Virus record (IMG/VR): IMGVR_UViG_2897346870_000006
Reading direction: 5' to 3' (one strand)
Length of the DNA: 41,822 bases
Source of the DNA: a virus
Lineage: Duplodnaviria; Heunggongvirae; Uroviricota; Caudoviricetes
Positions 24,922 through 25,673 of this stretch are shown here, piece by piece (the first letter of the stretch is position 1; the number at the start of each line of letters is the position of its first letter). The position numbers and the translations under genes are program-made. The notes beneath the pieces are model-generated. The model saw only the letters and a list, made by a program, of their open reading frames with translations. It was not told where the DNA came from and did not search any database.

Positions 24922-25179
24922 CTACTTCGCTTTTGCTTCCGCTCGCTTACGCCGGCGCTCTTCTTTCCTCTCGGCTTTTGCCATGTCCATGAATGCCTGC
25001 ATGATCGAGTTCCGCATCATGTAGCTAACAAAGTGATGATTGACACAGCCGTTGAGGCGCAGCTGCTCGCCAAACTCATCCACCGAGGCCAATGCTTCCA
25101 TCATGCCCTTCTCGCCTTTCATGAACTCTGAGAAGTCGCGCCCCGCTCTGGAGGCGCATTCAATAACACGATCACTCAT
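24922..25179 (-). CDS. Hypothetical protein (85 aa) with basic C-terminal tail
   Basis: Translationally coupled to the upstream KilA-N gene (4-nt overlap); lysine/arginine-rich C-terminus ERKEERRRKRAEAKAK. Confidence 0.4.
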   Translation of the reverse strand: MSDRVIECASRAGRDFSEFMKGEKGMMEALASVDEFGEQLRLNGCVNHHFVSYMMRNSIMQAFMDMAKAERKEERRRKRAEAKAK

Positions 25180-25673
25180 CCCGGAAGCCCGGGGATCGTA
25201 ATCTGCAGCTGGTTAGCCAGGGAGTTAATCTCAGCGACCAACACTGGCTTCGTATAGCGCCATGCTGCCAGCCCTTGTCCGCAGAAGCTCGCCATGTCTT
25301 TCTTCTGGTCAAACTCATGACATTTCATGTTGAGCTGCGCACTTAAGCTGTTGCGATGCTGAAGTTCTCCGGTGAAGTAGTCATCGAGGACTTTATAGGC
25401 CGCGTACTTGAACCCGGGGTTTAACCAAGCCGCATAATCGTAAGCAACAAACTTCCCGCCATATGTTCCACCGTGTACACCGCGCTCAGTAAAAACCACA
25501 GATTCGTGGTTTTTCTCCAGCTCGGCTAAGAACTCTTTGGTCTGCTTGTTTCGCAGGTAGTGGTAAGGCGATTCAGATTCACTTTTACCACTGGCTTTCC
25601 ACATATCAGTGAGGCAGATCATGCCATCTTCACCGATACGAATTGGTTGATTGAAGAGGGTTAATGATTTCAT
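25176..25673 (-). CDS. KilA-N domain protein (165 aa)
   Basis: N-terminal region IRIGEDGMICLTDMWKASGK...YHYLRNKQTKEFLAEL...VVFTERGVHGGTYGGKFVAYDYAAWLNPGFKYAAYKVLDDY resembles KilA-N/APSES DNA-binding domains. Confidence 0.5.
   Translation of the reverse strand: MKSLTLFNQPIRIGEDGMICLTDMWKASGKSESESPYHYLRNKQTKEFLAELEKNHESVVFTERGVHGGTYGGKFVAYDYAAWLNPGFKYAAYKVLDDYFTGELQHRNSLSAQLNMKCHEFDQKKDMASFCGQGLAAWRYTKPVLVAEINSLANQLQITIPGLPG

Follow-up and report, generated by a model that had tools for sequence, protein, structure and literature searches.

Two coupled genes at the junction of the lysis and packaging modules of a lambdoid phage, one encoding a 165-amino-acid (aa) protein with a KilA-N and an ORF11CD3 domain and the other an 85-aa partner, lie behind two terminator-like hairpins and a conserved leader RNA that folds over the Shine-Dalgarno (SD) sequence of the first gene. 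Both the leader and the C-terminal domain of the larger protein are homologous to those of the rha locus of P22-like phages, and no relation to the abortive-infection protein BstA was found. The analysis covers the whole stretch of 41,822 nucleotides (nt) of IMG/VR virus record IMGVR_UViG_2897346870_000006, here called the window. With little better than even confidence, we propose that the pair is an hkbK/hkbL-type member of the 'Bro network', the domain-swapping set that comprises KilA-N, ORF11CD3, Rha, ANT and related domains and is handled as a unit in PMC10111431, and that it acts as a gated, late-lytic DNA-binding accessory and not as a prophage defence. The slot that it occupies between the lysis cassette and the packaging genes is exchangeable, holding rha in P22 and phi80 and bor in lambda. 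As a gene pair it is common and already catalogued. What is new is a rha-slot cassette under the leader of rha and of the small P22 RNA P22F, together with a covariation-supported, SD-sequestering leader common to many Bro-network and HNH genes.

The leader folds with a minimum free energy of −73.8 kcal/mol (z −3.66) and pairs an anti-SD stretch (CCUUUGG..) with the SD region of the KilA-N gene. Three stacked helices emerge both from RNAalifold and from single-sequence folds, the basal one joining CCUUU(C) to the (A)AAGG of the SD region. G-U pairs are commoner on the sense than on the antisense strand (22 versus 7). As a pattern scan for the leader fixes paired bases, the sequences used for covariation were gathered from IMG/VR by an unpaired linker motif or by protein, reduced to 24 distinct leaders and aligned by sequence alone (MAFFT). 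In this alignment 93.4% of cells were paired, compared with 35-54% when the 3′ partners were slid by 1-3 columns. Changes on both sides were seen in 14 of 22 pairs, and the observed value was reached on no measure by any of 500 shuffles (0/500). The SD-occluding fold of the conserved leader is thus backed by covariation. Rfam gave no relevant match at E ≤ 1 in positions 23500-27700 of the window and none at gathering score in nine related loci, and a known RNA family such as IsrK was rejected for the leader on this ground.

The same element recurs in other phages. A covariance model derived from the leader alignment, R1, scored 58.5 bits at 25671-25780 of the window, 59.3 bits directly 5′ of rha in phage BTP1 and 44.5 bits in the leader of a distant T5orf172 gene, and its match ends at the ATG in the window and at BTP1 rha alike. 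Genes preceded by the leader encode Rha-ORF11CD3, other Rha, KilA-N-ORF11CD3, KilA-N-P63C and other KilA-N proteins, an ANT (KilAC) protein, T5orf172/MUG113 fusions, and HNH_3 endonucleases with or without AP2. In an Enterobacter prophage (L098), a second copy at 4442-4532 (46.4 bits) stands ahead of a 297-aa gene about 1 kb downstream of the first copy, so the leader can occur twice per region.

In P22, ten small RNAs were reported in 2026, among them P22F, an RNA of 89 nt (P22 21,301-21,389) that was seen during P22 infection, has its 3′ end 6 nt short of the rha start, partly overlaps ORF201 and was described as a small non-coding RNA without known function (PMC13397905). Positions 25687-25767 (−) of the window are identical to nt 1-81 of P22F (81/81). 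Leader RNA of this sequence type therefore accumulates in real infection, and what our analysis adds to P22F is its SD-sequestering fold, the covariation and its spread upstream of Bro-network and HNH genes. In BTP1 (L102, LT714109), the R1 match at 38607-38715 ends at the ATG at 38713, which is 69 nt inside the annotated rha gene (38644-39249). Because of this offset, and because P22F stops short of the rha start yet overlaps ORF201, P22-like rha genes probably have their ORF201 start annotated too far upstream, the true protein having about 178 aa. According to PMC4936722 (citing Mozola and Friedman 1985 and Henthorn and Friedman 1995), P22 rha itself belongs to the late operon, is regulated by integration host factor (IHF) and harms lytic growth when IHF is absent.

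Between Rz and the leader lie the two terminator-like hairpins T1 and T2. T1 is kept upstream of the slot gene in HK97, HK620, Klebsiella, Erwinia, Cronobacter and Enterobacter phages, and its stem shows compensatory changes among them (CG to GC, GC to AU). At the position of T2, other leader types carry a GCGCA..UGCGC hairpin. The whole spacer aligns with the spacers ahead of HK97 gp73, HK620 hkbK, a copy in the tail cluster of a Klebsiella phage and the copies of Cronobacter and Enterobacter phages; the spacer ahead of the Erwinia phiEt88 gene aligns too, though the protein there is only 51% identical. A consensus scan found no sigma-70-like promoter between Rz and the ATG of the 165-aa gene. 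Positions 24840-25880 contain no LexA-box-like site, and IHF consensus matches in the leader are not above chance. A sequence-only reading of this region had the pair transcribed with the late operon. It was right in that the genes are co-oriented with the late genes. They have no promoter-like site of their own, and T1 and T2 intervene. Together, the terminators, the lack of a promoter-like site and the buried ribosome-binding site (RBS) make an arrangement that fits gated lytic-phase expression and not constitutive prophage expression. Over the whole window, LexA-box-like CTGT-N8-ACAG sites with at most one mismatch number 24, versus 13.5 ± 3.4 in shuffles; four of them cluster at 3124-3412, probably a coding repeat in the tail-fibre region, and none is near the cassette.

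In the 165-aa protein, Pfam detects the KilA-N domain that the sequence-only reading had recognized (PF04383, residues 9-101, nt 25371-25649; E 1.3e-15, 57.6 bits against a cut-off of 23.8) and a further one that it had not named, ORF11CD3 (PF10549, residues 109-161, nt 25191-25349; E 2.4e-13, 50.5 bits against a cut-off of 25). The protein matches phrog_129 and shares about 30% identity with P1 KilA over residues 17-127. It also shares 27% identity, over 92% of its length, with orf11 of Pseudomonas phage D3 ('KilA-N domain protein'), presumably the namesake of ORF11CD3, given what Pfam calls that domain. At their C-termini, the 165-aa protein and BTP1/P22 Rha share a homologous domain (hhalign 95.9%, 36% identity). 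The N-terminus of the 165-aa protein is KilA-N, with no Pfam match to Phage_pRha (PF09669), and no ANT (PF03374)/KilAC or P22_AR domain was found by Pfam. In an AlphaFold2 (AF2) model with a predicted local distance difference test score (pLDDT) of 82.7, an N-terminal domain of beta strands and helices is followed by long helices at 86-130 and 132-156. For this model, Foldseek against the PDB yielded only weak matches (E > 0.1), which included winged-helix proteins and the APSES-like Bqt4. A PDB sequence search with the proteins of the pair gave nothing significant, and a nuclease domain was found in neither of them.

The 85-aa protein has no Pfam family and is matched end to end by phrog_875 (E 3e-54). 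Its earlier description as basic applies to the overall isoelectric point (pI) of 9.1 and to the tail, but not to residues 1-66, which have a pI of 5.2; the basic character comes solely from the 19-residue tail (pI 11). The AF2 model (pLDDT 93.6) consists of three helices with the basic KAERKEERRRKRAEAKAK tail on the last one. The family is very narrow (21 cluster representatives among 1.84 billion). T5orf172/MUG113 proteins carry at their N-terminus a domain homologous to residues 4-60 of the 85-aa protein (hhalign 96.4%), and the domain therefore belongs in the same shuffling network. At every recovered locus with the close 85-aa family, the gene directly upstream encodes a KilA-N protein, either of the ORF11CD3 type with an ATGA overlap or of the HK97 gp73 type (KilA-N and P63C) with a 2-nt gap. 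In the window, the 85-aa start codon overlaps the stop codon of the 165-aa gene and lies at a CCCGG-GCUU-CCGGG hairpin, which it follows in the fold of the junction, so synthesis of the protein should depend mainly on ribosomes arriving from the 165-aa gene. A zinc site was considered, as close relatives keep C8, C45, H48 and H49 with little or no variation, and was rejected since C8 and the histidine pair are not kept in the distant T5orf172 fusions. In the region 4001-8327 of locus L099, one such fused relative stands beside a KilA-N-P63C gene and an Arc/Arc/Bro-N immI-like region.

Fifty-seven phage records carry the 85-aa gene, among them HK620 (hkbK/hkbL), Shiga toxin phages (Stx1, Stx2 and Stx2c), HK97, HK022 and mEp phages and phages of Salmonella and Klebsiella, and the pair is present in 524 of 5426 complete Escherichia coli genomes (~10%). 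Rz is directly upstream in 75 of 87 related loci, and the downstream packaging genes are of lambda, P22 or HK97 type. In Klebsiella phage RAH1, the unit and its leader lie inside the tail cluster; hence the unit moves as a cassette. The pair is a mobile accessory cassette of late operons, which upholds the earlier view of an accessory two-gene unit in the interval of lambda bor. Morons, autonomous insertions in late operons, are flanked by a promoter and a terminator of their own; here hairpins lie 3′ of the 85-aa stop and genomic contexts differ, but no promoter-like site lies 5′ of the unit. In several comparisons with related copies, 20-28 changes are synonymous and 0 non-synonymous, and ratios of non-synonymous to synonymous substitution (dN/dS) against related loci span 0-0.27 (165-aa gene) and 0-0.14 (85-aa gene), which points to two real genes under strong purifying selection. 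Synonymous divergence (dS) reaches 0.47 in the 165-aa gene where the adjoining 85-aa gene stays at or below 0.08, a contrast that suggests mosaic recombination. The window has a cI gene of SfV/SfIV/cdtI type. The other records listed for this cI (at least 95% identical) are all absent from the 57 cassette carriers, and identical cassettes occur in the heteroimmune HK620, Stx and Salmonella phages. An E. coli-type cassette at 99% identity was also met on a 4-kb contig binned as 'Candidatus Nanosynbacter' (L086, JARKOR010000234.1), almost certainly a binning contaminant.

Among described systems, hkbK/hkbL of HK620 and the copies in Stx2 phages 1717 and 2851, ECP1 and Escherichia phage PhiR49_1 carry both genes downstream of Rz in unchanged order. 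Identity to these copies is 96-100% for the 165-aa protein and 100% for residues 1-66 of the 85-aa protein, the only part aligned, the tail being masked as low complexity. They show no difference of substance and are annotated as 'unknown', 'KilA' or 'KilA-N domain-containing protein'. D3 ORF11, a member of the Bro network (Iyer et al. 2002; listed in PMC10111431), has the two-domain KilA-N and ORF11CD3 architecture, but belongs to another host group and lies elsewhere in the late region. Rha (ORF201) of P22, BTP1 and phi80 resembles the 165-aa protein in the slot after the lysis genes, the ORF11CD3 C-terminus and the leader, whereas its N-terminus is Phage_pRha instead of KilA-N. P22 also lacks an 85-aa homologue, as orf80 of P22/BTP1 proved unrelated. 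HK97 gp73 and HK97p61 (also HK022 and mEp234) likewise combine a KilA-N protein with a downstream 85-aa gene. Slot and kind of leader are the same, but P63C replaces ORF11CD3 at the C-terminus, and a 2-nt gap replaces the ATGA overlap. HK97p61 (L002, NC_002167, 2001-2259) is a frameshifted 85-aa gene whose C-terminal 52 residues are intact in another frame. For the leader, parallels without sequence relation exist. Free-standing homing endonuclease genes of T4 are silenced by RBS-sequestering hairpins, and the lambda N leader is a long, RNase III-sensitive hairpin. In both, as here, the translation start of a phage gene that could do harm lies hidden in a long hairpin, which limits the time or level of its expression. 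The LexA-controlled antirepressors of the Gifsy type were rejected as relatives: they are small, unlike proteins at a LexA-controlled locus beside a dinI homologue, in another slot.

In our preferred reading, transcription would reach the pair only by way of a Q-modified, terminator-resistant polymerase that reads through T1 and T2 in the late lytic phase. Even then, the leader would throttle translation or require an opening event. RNase III might cut the long helix, or a trans-acting RNA or a host factor might open it, the last being suggested by the IHF dependence of rha. The product would be a DNA-binding complex of the KilA-N protein and its partner, probably oligomeric and harmful if over-made, which might serve as a non-essential lytic-phase regulator or as an antagonist between elements.

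Several points weigh against this reading. An SD-sequestering hairpin lowers translation yet is no proof of a regulated switch, and P22F could be a degradation product instead of a functional RNA. DNA binding, complex formation and toxicity are predictions from domain families, and Foldseek searches of the PDB and BFVD gave no significant structural relatives for either the 165-aa or the 85-aa model. A scan for the sigma-70 consensus could let a weak or activator-dependent promoter escape. An obligate partnership between the 85-aa domain and KilA-N, true of the close family, fails further out: distant KilA-N-ORF11CD3 genes are followed by unrelated small genes, and the T5orf172 fusions of the 85-aa domain stand alone in the slot, without a KilA-N neighbour.

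P22F gains a concrete, directly testable structural role as an SD-sequestering leader ahead of shuffled DNA-binding and nuclease-like genes. A cassette present in about 1 in 10 E. coli genomes, Stx phages included, is tied to the classical, unexplained rha locus because C-terminal domain, slot and leader are common to both. If the gate is regulated, it would explain why phages tolerate such genes and would provide a handle on what Bro-network proteins do.

A bolder proposal, which we put forward only tentatively, is that terminator and hairpin leader (P22F RNA) form a shared translational lock. Behind it, the lysis-packaging junction of lambdoid, P22-like and HK97-like phages could hold intrinsically toxic, DNA-targeting genes (KilA-N, Rha, ANT, T5orf172, HNH) that are swapped for one another. 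Such a lock would be opened only by RNase III processing, by a trans-acting RNA or by loss or titration of a host factor, IHF for example, and the pair would be a conditional weapon that aborts the development of the carrier phage or of its competitors. If true, this would give the 40-year-old Rha phenotype a molecular mechanism.

Defence or abortive infection, suggested earlier by analogy with BstA, would have the KilA-N protein sense or bind invading phage DNA and, with its partner, abort the infection or exclude superinfection, in the lysogen or late in the lytic cycle of the carrier. BstA is phage-borne like the pair and has a KilA-N-like N-terminal domain (PMC8585504), but at 307 aa, compared with 165 aa, it carries a different C-terminal domain and shares no detectable sequence similarity. 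BstA of BTP1 aligned to the profile of the 165-aa family with an hhalign probability of 0.07%, and PADLOC returned no BstA model match (E ≤ 0.1). What PADLOC did return is a partial match to PDC-S22 (E 1.2e-8), a candidate system. The match is confined to the KilA-N core, its best stretch pairing residues 60-90 with positions 100-130 of a 281-position profile, and a literature search on PDC-S22 found nothing informative. Position argues in the same direction, since BstA sits directly downstream of the BTP1 repressor gene (annotated c1), whereas in the late operon the pair follows T1 and T2, lacks a promoter-like site and has its RBS buried in a conserved hairpin. In favour of defence are the KilA-N-like domain of BstA, the partial PDC-S22 match, the accessory and mobile nature of the cassette, a HicAB toxin-antitoxin pair on the opposite strand in the lysis-to-terminase slot of one relative (L100, 3018-4540), and abortive infection of lambdoid phages by the slot gene rha in IHF-deficient hosts, as stated in PMC4936722. 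Profile searches placed the two proteins in families of which neither has a demonstrated function, and not in characterised non-defence families. Defence is therefore disfavoured while keeping a small share of the probability, and filing the pair as 'BstA-like defence' would be wrong.

An explanation that we judge unlikely to about the same degree treats the pair as a selfish mobile cassette. The slot behind the leader would be a landing pad for homing-endonuclease-like and Bro-network genes that spread by recombination at conserved flanks, and the leader would quiet a harmful passenger of little or no benefit to the phage. This accords with the leader ahead of HNH_3, HNH_3 plus AP2 and T5orf172/MUG113 (GIY-YIG-related) genes, with the near-identical cassettes in phages of unrelated immunity and packaging modules, with the mosaic dS values and with the hairpin silencing of T4 homing endonucleases. 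However, neither protein has a nuclease domain, and strong purifying selection and an occurrence in ~10% of E. coli genomes speak for a function under selection, though selfish genes are conserved too.

Least probable is an antirepressor that, like P22 Ant, would inactivate a CI-type repressor and so either drive the phage into lysis or, late in infection, induce prophages or satellites in the same cell: some homologue records bear this annotation, phi80 Rha is so named in PMC4936722, a distant relative of the 85-aa domain adjoins an Arc/Mnt/Bro-N immI-like region and the leader also precedes an ANT (KilAC) protein, but the annotations rest on similarity, ANT/KilAC and P22_AR domains are lacking, no LexA box or other early control is present, and the cassette is not tied to immunity type, which argues against a cognate antirepressor.

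The features of the junction are collected in Table 1. The coordinates and the ATGA overlap confirm the two open reading frames (ORFs) of the sequence-only reading and their coupling, and its placement of them between Rz and cos, with a DUF1398 gene on the opposite strand, was equally correct. The late operon runs on the − strand; Nu1 and A follow beyond cosN, and S, R, Rz, the pair, Nu1 and A all share this orientation.

Table 1. Features around the KilA-N gene pair, listed in the direction of late transcription; positions are those of the window.
Feature	Position	Strand	Remarks
Holin gene	26806-27021	−	
Lysozyme gene	26309-26806	−	
Rz gene	25875-26324	−	
Spacer, Rz to 165-aa gene			201 nt
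T1, intrinsic-terminator hairpin	25821..25844	−	GAGCCUCGC-GAU-GCGGGGCU and U5 run; 30 nt past Rz stop; from fold
T2, second hairpin	25789..25813	−	AUGCGU-N6-ACGCAU, then GU6; from terminator scan (25813-25796), fold and alignment
Leader hairpin, ~110 nt	25671..25780	−	Helices P1-P3 and apical stem; ends at ATG
SD region of KilA-N gene	25681..25691	−	AAAGAGUAGGU; paired inside leader hairpin
165-aa gene, KilA-N and ORF11CD3	25176-25673	−	hkbK type
85-aa gene	24922-25179	−	hkbL type; ATGA overlap with 165-aa gene
Two hairpins directly 3′ of 85-aa stop	24848-24923	−	Fold −33.9 kcal/mol, z −6.48
54-aa ORF	24681-24845	+	
DUF1398/YbcV gene	24210-24635	+	E 3e-43
DUF3950/YlcI gene	23934-24167	+	
cosN	23723-23734	−	Exact lambda sequence, GGGCGGCGACCT

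Of the hairpins that follow the 85-aa gene, the first (24882-24923, −) is long and very stable, begins at the stop codon and has no trailing U-run; it may be a 3′ stabiliser or a processing site. The second (24848-24869, −), which has UUUU behind it, could be a weak terminator or a 3′ stabiliser. The 54-aa ORF converges on the 85-aa gene and matches no family. It is kept beside the cassette at many loci, even without YbcV or YlcI, and may be a fellow-traveller of the cassette or merely conserved DNA. An 85-aa ORF at 23661-23918 (+), matching phrog_9395, runs across the exact lambda cosN and is probably no real gene, because cosN lies within it.

Positions 24600-25900 of the window are 100% identical to PhiR49_1 (PV340568.1), where the larger gene is annotated 'KilA-N-ORF11CD3'. 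A second record of equal length, PV340569.1 (PhiR49_1_star), is identical over the same positions, and the difference denoted by star thus lies outside the cassette. A literature search on PhiR49_1 and on mEp/ECOR phages found no paper. Between Q and holin, antiparallel to the late operon, the window carries a gene for an OmpC/OmpD/NmpC-like porin of 360 aa (27611-28693, +), which is annotated OmpD in PhiR49_1 and looks like a lysogenic-conversion gene, as in DLP12.

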